A stretch of 38,746 nucleotides of DNA from a virus (IMGVR_UViG_2648501400_000020:1-38746), one strand, 5' to 3'. Positions 22,224-38,746 are shown, counted from the stretch's first letter. Notes: a model not told the origin generated them from the letters alone. Program-made: numbers and translations.

Positions 22224-22496
22224 AATGACGCCCTCTGGTGGTTTCTAAACCATCACCACCGTCAGGTTCCTAATCATCGGGTGGTGAGACGTACAGGGTT
22301 AGGAACTACCGGGAAACCAACCGGCGAGCTTTTCAGCTCCCCCATACGCCCCACCATAATTCAGATGTGCGCGTGCATACGACAATAAAAAACACGCTCG
22401 CGGCGTGTGTCTGTCGCGGTCTCTATCCGGGGTTCCTAATCCCGACGCCAGATTTTGCTGGCGCGTGAGGAATATAGCCCCGGATAACAGATTGAG

Positions 22497-23051
22497 TCAA
22501 CAGACAGTTTTTAAATACCCGGAAGAGAATGCATCACGCATCGGCAGATAGAGCATATATTCAGCAAGATTTAGCCATACATCTACCCGACTGCAGCACG
22601 TCCGAAAACACCACTCAGGGTGTGCATCATTTAGCAATTCAGCCATTTTGCGCTTACTCATCCCCCGCCCTTCATATCTTTGCCGGAGGATACAAATCAA
22701 TCCTGGGTGTTCTGCCAGCACTTCACTAATCACCCGATCAATGCATAACGCCTCTGCATCAGTACAATGCACCAGCCAGCTTTTTTGCTTGCCGTTGATC
22801 ATATCCCGCAAAAAAGCCTCAAGTTCAGGTTTGTCCAGACCTGCTTTTTTCATCCTCCGGAGCGCCTCATTAATTGCCGTTTTTGTTAGCTTTTTAGAGG
22901 TCAGCAACTGGTTAAACATATTTCCCGTCTTACCGCCGCCAATATACGACCAGCGCCCCCACATGCGCAGTTTTCCCTGAATCCAGACACTTTCCAGCGT
23001 GGTGAGACGAAGGTGTTCCCCGCTTTTGCCTGTATTCGTTGGGTAAATCAT
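22497..23051 (-). CDS. Late-gene antiterminator (Q-like); start taken at internal ATG 23051 coupled to upstream stop
   Basis: Cys/His-rich basic protein in the canonical position between nin-type genes and the lysis cassette; ATGA overlap with upstream gene. Confidence 0.55.
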   Translation of the reverse strand: MIYPTNTGKSGEHLRLTTLESVWIQGKLRMWGRWSYIGGGKTGNMFNQLLTSKKLTKTAINEALRRMKKAGLDKPELEAFLRDMINGKQKSWLVHCTDAEALCIDRVISEVLAEHPGLICILRQRYEGRGMSKRKMAELLNDAHPEWCFRTCCSRVDVWLNLAEYMLYLPMRDAFSSGYLKTVC

Positions 23052-23338
23052 AAATAACCTTCCTTTCTCCAGATTTCTTGTGTGCGAAAAACACCTTCTG
23101 CATGCATCAGGCGTAATTCTTCTTTGGTGTAATCGCTGGTTTTTACCCGCCCGTCGATTAAATCGTGGCATGAGCTACAGGCAATCGCTGCCTGCATATC
23201 GTGTGGTTTTGTCGCTGTTCCGCACGTCCCCGCCAGCCTGTAATGCGCCAGCACAGAAGTTTCGGGATTGTGATTGCAGTAGCCAGGAATTCTGACGGTG
23301 CACATCTGCCCCCGCGCCGCTTTACGTAAATCCACCAT
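23048..23338 (-). CDS. DUF1364-type putative nuclease (YbcO-like)
   Basis: 96 aa with Cys/His cluster (CTVRIPGYCNHNPETSVLAHYRL...CSSCHD), typical nin-region gene just upstream of Q. Confidence 0.6.
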   Translation of the reverse strand: MVDLRKAARGQMCTVRIPGYCNHNPETSVLAHYRLAGTCGTATKPHDMQAAIACSSCHDLIDGRVKTSDYTKEELRLMHAEGVFRTQEIWRKEGYL

Positions 23339-23937
23339 TACGCAAACTCCAGCAGCTGCACGGCCACATTTTCGACTTGTTCCGGAGAGGAAAATTTACG
23401 GAACAGAATCCAGTTCCACAGCACATTCAGTACAGATTTATAAACCTGCTGAAACTCGGTTTCGTCCATATTCGCAAACGAGATGGATTTCGCCCTGCGC
23501 CCACGGCTACCGTCCGGATAAATATGCTCGGTGTAAAATCCGGCCTGAATGGTTACCCACTCGCGGAAAGCGTCAAACGACTTTAGCAATGCCGTATCCC
23601 GGGTTCTGCGTGTTGCAACTGTATTCAGATATTGCTCTGCGGCTTGGCTCAGAGCTGGCGTATGTTCCCGACCTACTGATTCACACAGGTAATCAACGAA
23701 ACCAGACAGCAGTTCTCGTTCGCGAGGCGTGATCGCCCCACCGACCGGAGTCCAGTAATCGAATCCCAATTGCAGGAGTTTGAAAAAACGCTTGTGGAAT
23801 GCGTAGTTACGCACACGCTTAAAGTCTGCGTGTATCCACTCGCCTATTTTTATTTGATGCAAAAAATCGCAACTCTCCGGCGTCGCCGGGAGAAGTAATC
23901 CGGAAGAGGTTTGTTTGACCAGTTGTATATGCGCCAT
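23338..23937 (-). CDS. Conserved nin-region protein (DUF1367-like)
   Basis: 199 aa ORF coupled to the YbcO-like gene. Confidence 0.4.
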   Translation of the reverse strand: MAHIQLVKQTSSGLLLPATPESCDFLHQIKIGEWIHADFKRVRNYAFHKRFFKLLQLGFDYWTPVGGAITPRERELLSGFVDYLCESVGREHTPALSQAAEQYLNTVATRRTRDTALLKSFDAFREWVTIQAGFYTEHIYPDGSRGRRAKSISFANMDETEFQQVYKSVLNVLWNWILFRKFSSPEQVENVAVQLLEFA

Positions 23938-24260: not shown

Positions 24261-24404
24261 ATAGAGACAAAAATATTAATCTGAAAAATATTTATTTCAC
24301 GTCGTATATTTGATTATTTAATGTGCAGGTACAATGACTTTTATTTTGTGTTGTGTATATAATCAAATATATGGTTATTTTTCACCCTACGTATTCAGCA
24401 CGCA

Positions 24405-24428
24405 ACAAAAAACCCGCCGAAGCGGGTT
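24405..24428 (-). terminator. Rho-independent terminator of the hok transcript
   Basis: cccgc-cgaa-gcggg hairpin (24413-24426) with T-run on the minus strand, about 70 nt downstream of the hok stop. Confidence 0.6.
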
Positions 24429-24495
24429 TAGTGCGGGTGCGTTGAGGATGCCTGACACATGAGAGGTGGCGAGGGATTACCCCTCGCCTGGTCTC

Positions 24496-24651
24496 TTACT
24501 TCTCAGATTCGTAGGCTACGAAGACAGCGACCTCCATCTGGCCGGTTCGGATTCGTACCTCGCAGAGGTCTTTCCTCGTTACCAGTGCCGTCACTATGAC
24601 GGTTAAACAGATGGCGATCAGGGCGATTAACATCGCCTTTTGCTGCTTCAT
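24496..24651 (-). CDS. hok: Hok/Gef-family type I toxin (51 aa); below the ORF-track length cutoff
   Basis: My translation: MKQQKAMLIALIAICLTVIVTALVTRKDLCEVRIRTGQMEVAVFVAYESEK; AAGGAG Shine-Dalgarno; short upstream ORF ends overlapping the start codon. Confidence 0.85.
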   Translation of the reverse strand: MKQQKAMLIALIAICLTVIVTALVTRKDLCEVRIRTGQMEVAVFVAYESEK

Positions 24652-24909
24652 AGCCTGCTTCTCCTTGACCTTTCGGTCCGTAAGAGGCTAATCTCTATGT
24701 GTCGCATAGATATGGCCTCAGATTAATGTTAAGCGTCTTGCCGGACGCGTAATGTTAACTGGGGCTTTTCTCTATCTGCCTTTTGGTGTTCATGCCTGAG
24801 ACAGATAGCCTCAAGCACCCACAGTCATTCTACTTAACTAAGATTTCCCTGCAAACCGTTTTTGTCCGGCACAGTAAATATCCAACTAAACCAATAGCGT
24901 TCGCTGTAT

Positions 24910-25089
24910 TTACCGCCAGTATTCAATGCACGTGACCGCCATGAACACCCCTAAAAAAAGGGCATTTATATGTCCAAACATTAATATCAAAACATCAATT
25001 TTTTCCATATACCTTGCTGTGAAGATGATGGGCATACATGATGCGAACAACCAGAACGCAACAAACAAAAACTGCAATGCGTTTTTCAT
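24910..25089 (-). CDS. Small hydrophobic membrane protein (start taken at ATG 25089 with GGGGG Shine-Dalgarno)
   Basis: 59 aa, two predicted transmembrane helices (FLFVAFWLFASCMPIIF and ALFLGVFMAVTCI); AT-rich flanks. Confidence 0.35.
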   Translation of the reverse strand: MKNALQFLFVAFWLFASCMPIIFTARYMEKIDVLILMFGHINALFLGVFMAVTCIEYWR

Positions 25090-26225: not shown

Positions 26226-26648
26226 TCACAGTGCCGCCTCCTGAAAATTACCCTGATAGAAAGCCAGTACACGCTGCATAGCTTCACTCTTCCGGCACTC
26301 GCGACAGATTATATTCAGGCGCCTGTCGTAGCGGCGTATTTCTCCGTCTGGTAATGACCAGATTAGGTCCGGATCAACTACTGCAGGTTTCTTCACCTTT
26401 GTCCTTGAGAGTTTTTTGCGGGCATTTTGCCAGTCCTTACGAGCCTGTTCAGACGGGAATAACCCGTAACCAGAGTTGTATACATCGCCACTGGCAACCA
26501 GCTCTCTGGCAAGAACGCTCATCAGATATCTTGTCGCACCTGTCTTGGCTTCCAGTTGCCGTAACGTCTCGCGCCCACTCCGGCGTACTAGCTCAACAAC
26601 CTGCCCTTTAATTTTTTCTCGCTCTTCTTGTGTAAATACTTTTGCCAT
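26226..26648 (-). CDS. Hypothetical protein (start taken at ATG 26648 with GGAGG Shine-Dalgarno)
   Basis: 140 aa ORF in replication/nin operon; C-terminal CRECRK motif. Confidence 0.4.
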   Translation of the reverse strand: MAKVFTQEEREKIKGQVVELVRRSGRETLRQLEAKTGATRYLMSVLARELVASGDVYNSGYGLFPSEQARKDWQNARKKLSRTKVKKPAVVDPDLIWSLPDGEIRRYDRRLNIICRECRKSEAMQRVLAFYQGNFQEAAL

Positions 26649-26663
26649 AGGTGCCTCCGGCAA

Positions 26664-27447: not shown

Positions 27448-28194
27448 TCACTTCGCAATTCCTGGCTGGACGACATTCGGACGCCAGCTCTCCCAGTTAA
27501 AATTCACCCATCGCCCGCCGTTCATGGTCATGCGATCCATAATCCTCTCGCCGAGCAATGTTTTCATGGCCTCATAGTTCAGGTTTGTCAGCATCCCCAC
27601 GCTGCGCATCGACGCTGTCCGGCGATCAACAATCTGGTGCAGCACCACCTGCTCGTTTTTTGTCTCGCGCTGAATGCCAATTTCATCAAGAACCAGCAGA
27701 TCCACTTCGCACAGTTCCCGCAAAAATTTTTCGCCTGACTGCCCGTCGTCATAGCTGGCGTGCAGGGCGCTCATAACATCAGCCACGGTAACCACAATCA
27801 CTGTCTGACCGTCTTTCAGCAGGCGATTCCCGATAGCTGCCGCTAAGTGATTCTTCCCGGTACCAGGTTTTCCGCTGAACGCAAAATTTGTACACCCGGT
27901 CATCAGTTCATCGGCGATGGATTTCGCCTGGCTTAACGCGTATCGCTGGCCGTCGTTCTGCACCTGGTAATTCGCAAACGAGCATTTACGGTGCAACGGC
28001 TGGATGCCTGAGCGATTCAGAATTTTTTCCACCCGCAACTGGCGATTCAGGCGGTTGATCTCCTCGCTACGTTTCTGGCCTTCAGCAAGTTGCCACTCGC
28101 GCCACTCCGCTACCGTTCTGAATGGGGCGGTTACATGTGGTGGGGTCAGTCTGCGGATACGCTCCAGAACGCCGCCTGTCGCAATATTTTTCAT
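27448..28194 (-). CDS. DnaC-like replicative helicase loader (IstB-type AAA+ ATPase)
   Basis: Walker [16 protein letters not shown] and Walker B-like LLVLDEIG; 248 aa, directly downstream of O-like initiator. Confidence 0.8.
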
Positions 28195-30703: not shown

Positions 30704-31111
30704 ACCATTTATTGGATTAATTCAATATTCTTGCTGTAGGGGTATAGCCGAGGCCACCAAAGCCCGGAGGTGGTGAAATAAAACCGGGCACAACACGAAG
30801 GCGCATTTCCGGTATCCATAAAGAGTCGGTCTTGTCTGTTAAATTTAAATGGTGGGAGTGCGCCTCCGGTTGTAAATAACGACATTGCTATGTGTAGTCT
30901 TTGGCGGCATCAGTTCTACTCCGTGGCTGCCCTGCCGCCCCTTTTTAAAGTGAATTTTGTGATGCGGTGAATGCGGCTAAGCGCACGCGGCACAGTTAAA
31001 AGCATCAGTGTTATGGGTGGATTATCCGGCGTTAATTGTTAACTGGTTAACGTCACCTGGAGGCACCAGGCACCGCATCGACAAAATTCATTTGTAAAAA
31101 TGGAGATAATT

Positions 31112-35091: not shown

Positions 35092-36144
35092 ATGAACGAA
35101 TTAACTCAACAAGAAAATATTAACTCTAATGTTGCGGTTTTCAGCCCTCAGTCCCTGGCTGCAATTCAGACATTTTCCCAGGTAATGGCTTCCGGCATGG
35201 CTACTGTACCGGAACACCTCCGGGGAAATCCATCAGACTGCATGGCCATCACCATGCAGGCGATGCAGTGGCAAATGAACCCTTACGCAGTAGCTCAGAA
35301 AACTTTCGTTGTGAATGGTATGCTCGGATATGAAGCGCAACTGGTTAATGCCGTAATCAGTACTCGTGGGCCGCTAACCGGGCGTATTGAATATGACTGG
35401 TTCGGGCCGTGGGAAAAAATTATCGGGAAATTTGAAATCAGGAAGAACGACAAGGGGAAAGAATATCGTGTACCTAGCTGGAAGCTGGCCGATGAAAACG
35501 GGATCGGAGTTCGCGTCCAGGCAACACTACGCGGAGAGAGCAAGCCACGCGTACTGGAGTTACTTCTGGCACAGGCCAGAACACGTAACTCAACGTTATG
35601 GGCCGATGATCCTCGCCAGCAGCTTGCCTATCTGGCACTGAAACGCTGGGCGCGCCTTTATTGCCCTGAAGTGATTCTTGGAGTGTACACCCGGGACGAA
35701 CTGGACGAACCACAGGAAAAAATCATTAATCCGGTTCAGGAACATAAAAATACATCCGCCTGCCGTGCGGAACGTGAAACAACAATTATTGAGCAGGATG
35801 CCGGGGAAAACTGGATCAGTGCTTTCCGTGAACGTATTGAGCAGGCACAAAGCACCGGAGAAACAACATCACTTCGCCAGGAAGTGGAAGATCATAAAAA
35901 TACACTTGGCGCTCTCTACACAGAACTTAAAGGAAAAGTGGTTCAGCGTCATCACCGTCTCAATGCTATTGCCCGTATTGAGACGATGATAAATGACCTG
36001 CCTTCATCAGGTGATCCAGAAGCAGAACAAAAATTTATTGCTCTGGAAAATACGCTGAATGCTGCACGACCACATCTGGGAGAATTATATGAGGCGTATA
36101 AAACGACACTGACAGATATGAAACCAGAATATATCGGCTCCTGA
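35092..36144 (+). CDS. Putative single-strand annealing/recombination protein (RecT/Bet position), family not recognised
   Basis: 350 aa, GAGG Shine-Dalgarno, 11 nt downstream of RecE-like stop; assignment by synteny. Confidence 0.4.
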   Translation: MNELTQQENINSNVAVFSPQSLAAIQTFSQVMASGMATVPEHLRGNPSDCMAITMQAMQWQMNPYAVAQKTFVVNGMLGYEAQLVNAVISTRGPLTGRIEYDWFGPWEKIIGKFEIRKNDKGKEYRVPSWKLADENGIGVRVQATLRGESKPRVLELLLAQARTRNSTLWADDPRQQLAYLALKRWARLYCPEVILGVYTRDELDEPQEKIINPVQEHKNTSACRAERETTIIEQDAGENWISAFRERIEQAQSTGETTSLRQEVEDHKNTLGALYTELKGKVVQRHHRLNAIARIETMINDLPSSGDPEAEQKFIALENTLNAARPHLGELYEAYKTTLTDMKPEYIGS

Positions 36145-36207
36145 TATTTACTATGGCGGTGTAGCCTCACCGCCATAACAAAACTTTATTTTATGAGAGA
36201 AAAGACA

Positions 36208-36402
36208 ATGCGGTATGAAAAAGTCAAACCATGTCCGTTTTGTGGTTGTCCATCAGTAACGGTGAAAGCCATTTCAGGATATTACCGCGCAAAGTGTAAC
36301 GGATGCGAATCCCGAACCGGCTATAGTGGAAGTGAAAAAGAAGCACTCGAAAGATGGAATAAACGAACTACTGGAAATAATAATGGAGGTGTTCATGTAT
36401 AA
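36208..36402 (+). CDS. Lar-like restriction alleviation protein (zinc finger)
   Basis: 64 aa from ATG 36208; CPFCGC...CNGC motif typical of the Lar family. Confidence 0.5.
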   Translation: MRYEKVKPCPFCGCPSVTVKAISGYYRAKCNGCESRTGYSGSEKEALERWNKRTTGNNNGGVHV

Positions 36403-36583
36403 AATTACTGCCACTATTGAAAAGGAAGGTGGCACTCCTACTAACTGGACAAGATATTCAAAATCTAAATTAACGAAATCAGAATGCGAAAAAATGCTCT
36501 CAGGGAAAAAAGAAGCAGGCGTTTCCAGAGAGCAGAAAGTAAAGCTGATAAATTTTAATTGCGAGAAACTTCTGTCCTCGTGA
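36395..36583 (+). CDS. Small hypothetical protein (YdaC-like position)
   Basis: 62 aa from ATG 36395 with GGAGG Shine-Dalgarno; overlaps end of Lar-like gene. Confidence 0.3.
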   Translation: MYKITATIEKEGGTPTNWTRYSKSKLTKSECEKMLSGKKEAGVSREQKVKLINFNCEKLLSS

Positions 36584-36689
36584 GTTGCATTATATACAAA
36601 TTAGAACTTCATAGCTGATTATTAAAAATCAACCACATCCGCCAGTATTCTGTATATTTACTGGCGGTCATATCGTAAGAGGTATGGCA

Positions 36690-36971
36690 ATGAATCTTGT
36701 GACACTCAAAACGTGGGGAAAACTCAGATATCCGGATAACCCACCATCAATATCAACGCTGAGACGATGGGCAAGGAATGGAAACATTTATCCTGCACCT
36801 GAACTACACGGGAGGAGTTACAGGGTGGTTCCGGAGGCTTTCTATATCAACCCAAATAAGGTTGATACCGATATAACACACCATCAGCCTAATGGGCGAC
36901 AAGGGAGAGACAGTCCGTTACTGGAGAAGTTAAAACATGCAGCGGAAAAAATACGATCCCAATTTGCCTAA
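36690..36971 (+). CDS. xis: Excisionase (lambda Xis-like)
   Basis: TLRRWARNGNIYPAPELHGRSYRV resembles the lambda Xis winged-helix core; overlaps int start as in lambda. Confidence 0.6.
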   Translation: MNLVTLKTWGKLRYPDNPPSISTLRRWARNGNIYPAPELHGRSYRVVPEAFYINPNKVDTDITHHQPNGRQGRDSPLLEKLKHAAEKIRSQFA

Positions 36972-38013
36972 AAACTTAACATATCGAAGGAGGGACAAAG
37001 CATATTACTGGCGCAACCCTCTGACGAAAGAAGAATTTACACTAGGTAAAATTTCAAGAAGAGATGCAGTAGCGCAGGCAATTGAAGCAAATCATTATAT
37101 ATACAAAAACTACTCTCCTGCTGCCTTAATTGAAAAGCTTAAAGGGTTCGACTCATTTACTATGGCAGACTGGATTGAACGTTACAAAACGATTCTTATA
37201 AGGAGAAAAGTGTCCAGAAATACTTATAAAATTCGGGTAAATCAACTGGAGACAATAAAAGAAAAATTGGGGGAAATTTTACTGACAGAAATAACCACTC
37301 GCCATATTGCCGAGTTTCTTGATTTGTGGATTGAAGGAGGGAAAAACACAATGGCAGGATCAATGCGTTCTGTGTTGTCTGATATGTTTCGTGAGGCCAT
37401 TGTTGAAGGACGTATATCTCAAAATCCAGTAACGCCAACAAGAGCACCGAAAATAGTAGTTACAAGAGAACGACTGAAACTAAAGACATACAACTGCATC
37501 AGGGAGGCAGCAGATCAACTTCCGGCATGGTTCCCATTAGCTATGGATTTAGCCCTTGTAACAGGACAACGTCGCGAAGACATAACGAATATACGGTTTA
37601 GTGATATTTATGATGATCGTCTCCACATCAGGCAAATTAAGACAGGAATGATGATTGCTATCCCCCTGTCACTCAGCCTTCCTGTCGCTGGTCTACGGCT
37701 TGGTACAGTAGTTGAACAGTGCCGCCTGGTAAGCCGGGGAGATTATCTAATCAGTGCCGGGATTAGAAAAAACAGCCCTGACGGCAGCATTCACCCGGAT
37801 GGCCTGACAAAAAAATTTGTCGCAGCCAGAAAATTAACAGGTATCCAGTTCAGTGAAAACCCACCAACTTTTCACGAGATCAGAAGTCTGGCTGGACGAT
37901 TGTACAAAGAAACATGTGGAGAAGAATTTGCTCAGCGTCTACTTGGCCACACATCGGAGAAGACAACAAAAATGTATCTTGATGAGAGAGAAAAAACGTA
38001 CTTACTGCTCTGA
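36937..38013 (+). CDS. int: Tyrosine integrase, lambda Int family
   Basis: 358 aa; N-terminal arm-binding region ([29 protein letters not shown]) and C-terminal catalytic region ([13 protein letters not shown]...[13 protein letters not shown]) parallel lambda Int. Confidence 0.9.
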
Positions 38014-38060
38014 TTTTAACGTAAATGGATTGTTAAATGTATTTTGGTTGTGATATAACC

Positions 38061-38078
38061 AAAAAAGACCGGAATACA
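38061..38078. repeat. att-like core repeat AAAAAAGACCGGAATACA, degenerate copy of the sRNA 3-prime end at 38145-38163
   Basis: Direct imperfect repeat read from sequence, 84 bp apart, just downstream of int. Confidence 0.3.
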
Positions 38079-38144
38079 GAAATTCGAGTAAATTTCGGGG
38101 AATTTCGGGAAGACGTTTGCAACTGATTGATTTTAAATACAATT

Positions 38145-38247
38145 AAAAAAAGACCGAATACGATTCCTGTATTCGGTCCAGGGAAATGGCTCTTGGGAGA
38201 GAGCCGTGCGCTAAAAGTTGGCATTAATGCAGGCTTAGTTGCCTTGC
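38145..38247 (-). ncRNA. sdsR: SdsR (RyeB)-like small RNA with intrinsic terminator
   Basis: Minus-strand transcript beginning GCAAGGCAACUAAGCCUGCAUUAAUGCC and ending in hairpin GACCGAAUACAGGAAUCGUAUUCGGUC plus U-run; lies between a yebY-like gene and the prophage as in the enterobacterial ryeA/ryeB locus. Confidence 0.5.
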
Positions 38248-38334
38248 TCTTTAAGAATAGATGACGACGCCAGGTTTTCCAGTTTGCGTGCAAAATGGTC
38301 AATAAAAAGCGTGGGGGTCATCAGCTTAAATGTT

Positions 38335-38378
38335 AAAAACCGCCCGTTCTGGTGAAAGAACTGAGGCGGTTTTTTATT
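38335..38378. terminator. Bidirectional rho-independent terminator between sRNA region and yebY-like gene
   Basis: accgcc...ggcggt extended hairpin with A-run upstream and T-run downstream on the plus strand. Confidence 0.6.
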
Positions 38379-38404
38379 GGAAATCAAAAGGCTATTTTAG
38401 GTAA

Positions 38405-38746
38405 TTAACAGAGTTTTTCAGCTCGCTCTATAAACGGTGCCAGACTCATTTTTTCGCCGGGATTGTTAGGATCATCAATCTGAATCACCGAAATGAGTTG
38501 GGCTTTAGTCTTCCCACTGGCAACTTCCTTTTGTGCGATATCGTTTAAAGGATACTGCACGAGGGTACTTGGGTTGATGACATACAAAGCATTACCTGGT
38601 CGGCAAGCCAGCATCACCTCTTCGCGATTAAACGCCCATTTGTCTTTACCCACTTCAAAACGGCTGACGGTAATCACCTGCGGTGCCGCCAGCGCAGCTG
38701 CAGAACTGGTGAGTAACAGAAACGCCAGAATACTTTTTTTCATCAT
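38405..38746 (-). CDS. Host-type secreted protein with signal peptide (YebY-like)
   Basis: 113 aa, N-terminal [20 protein letters not shown] signal peptide; lies outside the prophage beyond the sRNA locus. Confidence 0.5.

Follow-up and report, generated by a model that had tools for sequence, protein, structure and literature searches.

A probable hok/sok-family type I toxin–antitoxin cassette with a 19-codon mok reading frame in the nin region of a lambdoid Escherichia coli prophage

The hok/mok/sok system (parB) of plasmid R1, used for plasmid stabilisation, has a mok reading frame of 70 codons, 19 of them upstream of hok (PMC9841398), which overlaps nearly all of hok. In R1, toxicity is abolished when the mok start codon is mutated or a premature stop is placed ahead of hok, and stops after the hok start are harmless, mok translation being needed up to the hok initiation region (PMC9841398). 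Trimming of the R1 mRNA is described as switching it to tac/ucb and Shine–Dalgarno (SD)/dcb pairings (PMC9841398, PMC1635323), and a YUNR U-turn motif is decisive for fast binding of Sok (PMC6562991). A prophage relative, hokW/mokW/sokW of the Stx2 phage 933W and the Sakai prophage Sp5 (AF125520; Takada et al. 2021, PMC8621323), was established in Sp5 as a type I toxin–antitoxin pair, where HokW appears after RecA-dependent prophage induction as the sokW RNA vanishes, with a two-fold gain in phage release (PMC8621323). Its toxin is 44% identical to the R1 Hok (PMC8621323), to which the toxin described below is likewise only distantly similar.

Here we analyse a locus within a 38,746-nt stretch of viral DNA (IMGVR_UViG_2648501400_000020:1-38746), referred to throughout as the window. 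The sequence, the predicted RNA folds and the analogy with the systems above give us high confidence that the locus is a complete and probably functional hok/sok-family type I toxin–antitoxin cassette of the HokD/HokW subtype, situated in the nin region of a lambdoid E. coli prophage. It is an ordinary copy of a known system, whose toxin already bears the name hokD in the related RefSeq records inspected, and its discovery value is accordingly small: this is a textbook type I cassette, a prophage relative of which has already been tested experimentally. Only the upstream mok reading frame, with just 19 codons, is out of the ordinary. Table 1 gives the coordinates of all parts of the cassette and of its neighbours.

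Table 1. Features of the cassette and neighbouring genes, in coordinates of the window
Feature	Coordinates	Strand	Basis and remarks
hok promoter TTTGCA - 17 nt - TAGAAT	24827..24855	-	Consensus scan; -10 region GTTAAGTAGAAT conserved in relatives
Predicted full-length hok mRNA, ~416 nt	24405..24820	-	5' end GGGUGCUUGAGG = RF01794 position 1; 3' end = terminator T run
tac element, mRNA 5' end GGGUGCUUGAGG	24809..24820	-	Predicted to pair with fbi (full-length fold) or ucb (trimmed fold)
ucb / anti-SD box AAGCCCC	24761..24767	-	Predicted to pair with mok SD (full-length) or tac (trimmed)
Predicted Sok RNA, ~69 nt: ~13-nt 5' tail, long hairpin, GGGGCUUUU tail	24701..24769	+	Ends from annotated sokW misc_RNA of 933W
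Sok promoter TTGACC (24665-24670) - 18 nt - TAATCT (24689-24694)	24665..24694	+	Read from sequence
Sok-target hairpin	24684..24719	-	RF01794 conserved helix; forms in predicted fold of mRNA trimmed to 24458; contains palindrome
Leader (mok) SD GAGG	24716..24719	-	8 nt upstream of ATG 24707; aligns with R1 mok SD (PMC9841398)
Leader ORF, 19 sense codons, MRHIEISLLRTERSRRSRL	24648..24707	-	ATG 24707-24705, TGA 24650-24648
hok SD AAGGAG	24661..24666	-	Inside leader ORF; invariant in relatives and R1
hok toxin gene, 51 aa	24496..24651	-	Pfam HOK_GEF; protein MKQQKAMLIALIAICLTVIVTALVTRKDLCEVRIRTGQMEVAVFVAYESEK
3' UTR hairpin GGCGAGGG-GUAAU-CCCUCGCC, presumed road-block for 3' trimming	24468..24488	-	Every predicted fold
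fbi element CCUCAACGCACCC	24435..24447	-	Predicted to pair with tac, 12 bp, one bulge
Intrinsic terminator	24405..24429	-	Stem 24429..24410, 8 bp (5 GC), loop TTCG, T run to ~24405
DnaC-like loader	27448-28194	-	
Ren-like gene	26226-26663	-	
NinB/DUF1367 gene	23338-23937	-	
DUF1364/HNH gene	23048-23338	-	
Q-like antiterminator	22497-23171	-	

The original prediction, made from the sequence alone, had proposed a Hok-family type I locus with a 51-aa Hok/Gef toxin, and both proposals stand: all canonical RNA elements are present in the sequence, and the toxin matches Pfam PF01848 (HOK_GEF) at E=3.5e-21 (75 bits against a cut-off of 22, with 42/42 profile positions covered). It shares 48/51 residues with HokW of 933W and 46/51 with HokD WP_000813254. 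The NCBIfam Hok and HokA models scored under their curated cut-offs (52.1 against 73), and hence no equivalog name was taken. We also note that the Tyr47 codon of the toxin is the UAC of a UACGAA at 24508–24513 (-), which is the context reported for TadA A-to-I editing, giving Tyr to Cys, in the hokB, hokC, hokD and hokE mRNAs (bioRxiv 10.1101/2025.08.07.668861); editing at this site would yield Y47C, a second Cys able to pair with Cys30.

Compared with the 933W system, the hok mRNA region is 94% identical (364/387), and tac, ucb, the mok SD, dcb, the hok SD and fbi are common to both. The differences lie in the initial ~16 nt of Sok, which comprise its 5' tail and the base of its hairpin, and in the target loop, in the spacing of the leader, whose ATG in 933W lies 57 nt upstream of hok and in the window 56 nt, where the frame stops at the hok ATG, and in position: the 933W copy sits near the right genome end and is without the GC-hairpin terminator. 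Since leader and hok share a reading frame in 933W, the annotated product is a 70-aa MokW (leader plus Hok). With R1 the window shares 19 leader codons upstream of hok, the SDs GAGG and AAGGAG, pairing of the mRNA ends through tac and fbi, the ucb and dcb elements, an antisense RNA across the leader start and a road-block hairpin in the 3' UTR; the R1 system is on a plasmid, whereas the window cassette belongs to a prophage, and the R1 mok continues for its full 70 codons whereas the window leader ends after 19.

Two further relatives place the cassette within its own lineage. hokD (relF) of the K-12 Qin prophage has the same toxin subtype, 3' UTR, fbi, terminator and downstream rem-like gene as the window, but its homology runs from the hok SD onward only, the leader, mok start, Sok promoter and Sok gene having been replaced by relBE; the window cassette is therefore this gene in its complete form. 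In the MG1655 record (L087, 1644500-1648000; 620-960), tac, ucb, the mok start and sok are lost to the relBE insertion and the hok SD and coding sequence are kept, and because the insertion removed tac, the K-12 fbi is left without a partner. The second relative, 'Escherichia phage Rac' strain 442/2 (MN652886), and mEp460-like phages carry the cassette at the same nin position, between early genes and rem/DUF1367/Q. Rac 442/2 has the same GGTCAAGG form of the hok SD hairpin as the window, and its leader ATG is at -58 from the hok ATG, opening a 68-aa overlapping mok; removing 2 nt from the target loop of that type gives the window allele.

The genomic setting agrees with the nin-like region originally proposed, given the same-strand neighbours: the DnaC-like loader and the Ren-like gene lie on one side of the cassette, and a rem-like ORF, the NinB/DUF1367 gene, the DUF1364/HNH gene and the Q-like antiterminator on the other. 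The rem-like ORF is named by position only and belongs to a PHROG family of unknown function. Conservation among relatives starts at ~24836, at the hok -10, and ends at ~24407, and because the flanks beyond these limits are unrelated, the cassette can be regarded as a portable block of ~430–450 bp. The locus had been delimited as 24405–24910; this holds for the cassette part, but 24860–24910 falls outside it, since conservation starts at ~24836 and the predicted hok promoter goes no further than 24855. Just upstream of that promoter, at 24910–25089 (-), there is a very hydrophobic 59-aa ORF (MKNALQFLFVAFWLFASCMPIIF...) with a good SD, which matches none of Pfam, PHROG and NCBIfam. The proposal that the cassette has a terminator of its own was also correct, the terminator scan finding the stem at 24429..24410 followed by a T run. 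An Rfam rsmX match at 24407–24492 was rejected, with 26 bits against 56 and nothing underlying it beyond the terminator hairpin.

The mRNA itself is predicted to be highly structured. The 416-nt transcript has a minimum free energy (MFE) of -183.4 kcal/mol, against -122.5 ± 6.3 for shuffled sequences (z=-9.64). In both the MFE and the centroid fold of the full-length molecule, nt 1–12 (tac) are predicted to pair with nt 374–386 (fbi); in the same fold the leader SD GAGG (24719–24716) would be bound by the GCCCC of ucb, and the leader AUG and the next ~12 nt would be paired with the 3' UTR. When the 3' end is set at 24462 or 24458, the model instead forms tac/ucb and leader SD/dcb (GCCUC) pairings, with a stem-loop of the leader start at the tip, and such a refolding would be the switch described for R1. 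The outcome varies with the assumed 3' end, the closed form being kept in predictions ending at 24455 or 24450. The 3' UTR hairpin (24468–24488) lies in the same place as the R1 3' stem-loop (PMC1635323).

The complementarity of tac and fbi is lineage-specific, with GGGUGC/GCACCC here and GGCGC/GCGCC in R1, and both elements are conserved among relatives, which form a set of 58 very similar unique sequences with R1 as the sole distant one. Calculated duplex energies were -19.8 (here) and -15.8 (R1) kcal/mol for the cognate pairs and -13.9 and -13.4 for the swapped ones, cognate duplexes thus being ~2–6 kcal/mol stabler than R1-swapped duplexes.

A covariance-model search, suggested as a check in the original prediction, matched the hok leader to Rfam RF01794 ('sok antitoxin') at 24649–24820 (-), with 106.7 bits against a gathering threshold of 59 (E=1.9e-23 for the whole window). 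The match spans model positions 1–157 of 157, from GGGUGCUUGAGG to the hok AUG, and confirms four leader helices. Together with the fold statistics of the transcript, it puts the locus well outside what chance would give. As the match is on the hok-sense strand and stops at the hok AUG, RF01794 models the hok mRNA leader and provides no direct test of Sok; we therefore rejected this match as evidence for the Sok RNA itself, so that the search bears out the leader but not the antisense RNA.

For Sok, two features found in the sequence, promoter hexamers on the opposite strand and an overlap with the leader start, point to a cis-antisense RNA. The promoter was not called by the generic sigma-70 consensus scan, because its -10 matches only 3/6 positions, and was placed by homology, its positional homologues being TTGCCT-17-TAACCT for sokW and TTGCGC-17-TATCCT for R1. 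Antisense transcription had been anticipated around 24690–24790, which overlaps the predicted Sok, although the homology with sokW suggests a slightly narrower region, 24701–24769. The predicted RNA aligns with sokW at 67/69 positions, hairpin and 3' tail being identical, and the segment 24699–24772 that contains it has a folding energy of -31.6 kcal/mol (z=-5.4). Its 5' ~13 nt are complementary to AUAUCUAUGCGAC, the leader AUG region; in the MFE fold these nucleotides form a weak 5-bp hairpin and no free tail.

On the mRNA side, the palindrome previously noted at 24691–24712 is a real hairpin corresponding to a conserved RF01794 helix, and appears in the predicted fold of the 3'-trimmed mRNA. 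The target hairpin of which it is part has an outer stem of mok SD/dcb (24719–24715 with 24688–24684), an inner stem UCUAUG/CAUAGA (24710–24705 with 24699–24694) and the loop CGACA (24704–24700). The R1 target loop has a YUNR motif (CUAG), whereas no such motif occurs in or beside the loop CGACA. YUNR is also absent in several sister alleles (e.g. ATGAACGGCAAATC), others having CUGA, CUAG or UUUG. We considered the missing YUNR and the 2-nt loop deletion as signs of disabling decay and rejected this, given that the leader is found in 777 genome records and that other alleles lack YUNR.

The most variable transcribed stretch among the 58 unique relatives is 24716–24697 (mean column entropy 0.66–0.75, against 0.0–0.6 in the other transcribed bins up to the terminator). 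This stretch comprises the 5' tail of Sok together with the target of that tail; the hairpin and tail of Sok are invariant. We offer the idea that the variability of the stretch may set antitoxin specificity and spare the 1–9 copies per genome from cross-talk.

Taken together with what is described for sokW and R1, these features suggest the following course of events, which agrees with the accepted mechanism. A constitutive promoter would give the 416-nt hok mRNA, running from 24820 to 24405 (-), in which tac and fbi are predicted to close the molecule, ucb to hold the leader SD and the 3' UTR to pair with the leader start, so that full-length mRNA should be neither translatable nor Sok-sensitive. 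Slow trimming of the 3' end up to the hairpin at 24488–24468 would then remove fbi, as modelled with 3' ends at 24462 and 24458. By homology with sokW and R1 Sok, the unstable ~69-nt Sok would bind across the leader AUG via its 5' tail, block leader translation and trigger cleavage by RNase III. Once Sok is lost, whether because the prophage is induced, transcription is shut off or the element itself disappears, the 19-codon leader would be translated, and ribosomes crossing the hok SD and stopping at the UGA would open or re-use the hok AUG, a step supported by the R1 mutagenesis. Hok would finally enter the inner membrane, where, as a property of the family, it would collapse the membrane potential.

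As to what such a cassette does for its carrier, the likeliest role is an aid to lysis and phage release after induction, by analogy with Sp5 hokW-sokW, which belongs to another phage and another genome position; prophage retention and exclusion of other phages are possible roles. That the same system serves chiefly prophage retention through post-segregational killing, or abortive infection, and does not help lysis, is a reading we regard as tentative and rather less probable: the sequence holds nothing that discriminates between the roles, and the only direct test of a prophage copy, that of Sp5, found Hok on induction and the two-fold phage release cited above (PMC8621323).

The distribution of the cassette bears on whether it is active at all. 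A 601-nt query (24350–24950) was found by megablast in 4937/5426 complete E. coli genomes, with ~12,000 hits overall and, per genome, a median of 2 and a maximum of 9 copies; the records listed name the toxin hokD. Among the best phage matches are 933W and VT2-Sakai, the records of which annotate mokW, hokW and the SokW antisense RNA. Moreover, 777 complete E. coli genome records contain the exact 87-nt leader (24640–24726) at >=99% identity, in differing prophage backgrounds and with an intact hokD annotated in those listed; on this sequence comparison, the 19-codon allele is no private lesion. In RefSeq records L001 and L086, PGAP marks the hokD coding sequence alone, and mok and Sok features are absent though the elements are intact. 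Automated annotation covers only the toxin coding sequence, to which the present analysis adds the coordinates of all parts.

Against this background we consider it unlikely that the cassette, though intact in sequence, is a silent passenger that makes too little Hok to matter, a state reported for several chromosomal hok loci; according to the summary in bioRxiv 10.1101/2025.08.07.668861, chromosomal hokA, hokB and hokC brought about no post-segregational killing when tested earlier. In its short leader, its target loop devoid of YUNR and its weak Sok promoter (-10 TAATCT and an 18-nt spacer, compared with TTGCCT-17-TAACCT in 933W), the window cassette does depart from the R1 paradigm, and these departures speak for a silent passenger. 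Yet none of the regulatory elements is missing and in the predicted folds all of them form the expected pairs, hok has an intact ORF, the identical 87-nt leader persists across the varied prophage backgrounds of those 777 records, and the 94%-identical hokW-sokW is active (PMC8621323), all of which favours a functional cassette.

The leader ORF of this probably functional cassette had been described in the original prediction as a 19-codon upstream ORF, in an arrangement suggestive of mok-like coupling to hok, with a TGA overlapping the hok ATG. This description proved accurate: the TGA (24650–24648) and the hok ATG (24651–24649) share TG in the context cTATGAag, and the leader ATG aligns with, and is homologous to, the start codons of mokW of 933W and mok of R1. 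An SD of its own, an ORF spanning the hok SD and an end at AUGA together mark it, as far as sequence can, as a mok-type leader. Loss of 2 nt from the hairpin loop makes the frame end at the hok ATG, the alignment of relatives identifying the window leader as the -58 type minus these 2 nt, and coupling would therefore go through reading across the hok SD and termination at AUGA and not through a long overlap. In light of the R1 mutagenesis (PMC9841398), a 19-codon leader that crosses the hok SD and stops at AUGA fits the R1 requirement, and by analogy the stop at AUGA adds termination/re-initiation as a possible coupling route.

Leader frames were compared in 85 related loci and the window, a sample biased to proteins resembling the query. 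In 64 loci the leader ATG lies at -57 from the hok ATG, in frame, as a 70-aa leader–Hok fusion of the 933W type; in 14 it lies at -58, with a classical overlapping mok of 68–70 aa (R1 and Rac 442/2 type); and in 4 (the window, L001, L067 and L077) it lies at -56, with 19 codons to AUGA. Four more loci fall outside these classes. In the -57 relatives (L002, which is 933W, 1653–1865, and 63 other loci), a start at the leader would give a 70-aa N-terminally extended Hok. Among unique leader-plus-Hok sequences (n=47), the ATG is at -57 in 36, at -58 in 8 and at -56 in 2; since the leader frame is not conserved, the leader peptide carries no information. The position of the leader ATG and SD is nevertheless kept in 46/47, and in all three frames ribosomes starting at the leader ATG would, from the sequence, cross the hok SD.

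That the 19-codon ORF is no working coupler, hok being read from its own AAGGAG after refolding or having been uncoupled or weakened by the 2-nt deletion, we judge the most doubtful of the alternatives, for although the leader frame varies and hok has a strong SD of its own, the leader start is kept and the hok SD is traversed in all three frames as just described, R1 mok start mutations or stops before hok abolish toxicity when later stops do not (PMC9841398), and it is the leader AUG, not that of hok, which the Sok 5' tail covers, an arrangement sensible only if leader translation matters.

Retaining the coupled leader, we put at about even the chances of a broader view, in which the HokD/HokW prophage clade presents a natural allelic series (-58/-57/-56) where only passage over the hok SD is selected, the window couples by re-initiation at AUGA, and the variable Sok tail and target form a specificity code against cross-talk of up to 9 copies. 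We found no description of the leader-frame polymorphism, including the 19-codon AUGA allele, in the literature searched; a 2026 Hok survey explicitly left mok unanalysed, and searching for mokA to mokE returned Monascus papers only. This polymorphism is the only, and a modestly, new point of the locus, and the three leader-frame alleles offer a ready natural test of mok–hok coupling.

Finally, several other RNA genes were observed in the window. Directly downstream of the Q-like antiterminator gene (22497–23171), at 22277–22477 (-), Rfam gives matches to isrK (69 bits), C4 antisense RNA (67 bits) and the a1/b1 targets (48 bits), and a DicF sRNA (61 bits) lies at 30889–30940 (+), near the immunity region. 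The RalA antitoxin sRNA at 36401–36579 (-), with 224 bits, adjoins ralR, a second type I toxin–antitoxin system in the same prophage. Additionally, the integrase/excisionase end of the prophage adjoins yebY and the overlapping SraC/RyeA and SdsR/RyeB sRNA genes (38141–38285); the region 35500–38746 is 99.4% identical to E. coli chromosomes, and the whole arrangement is found in 57/5426 genomes.
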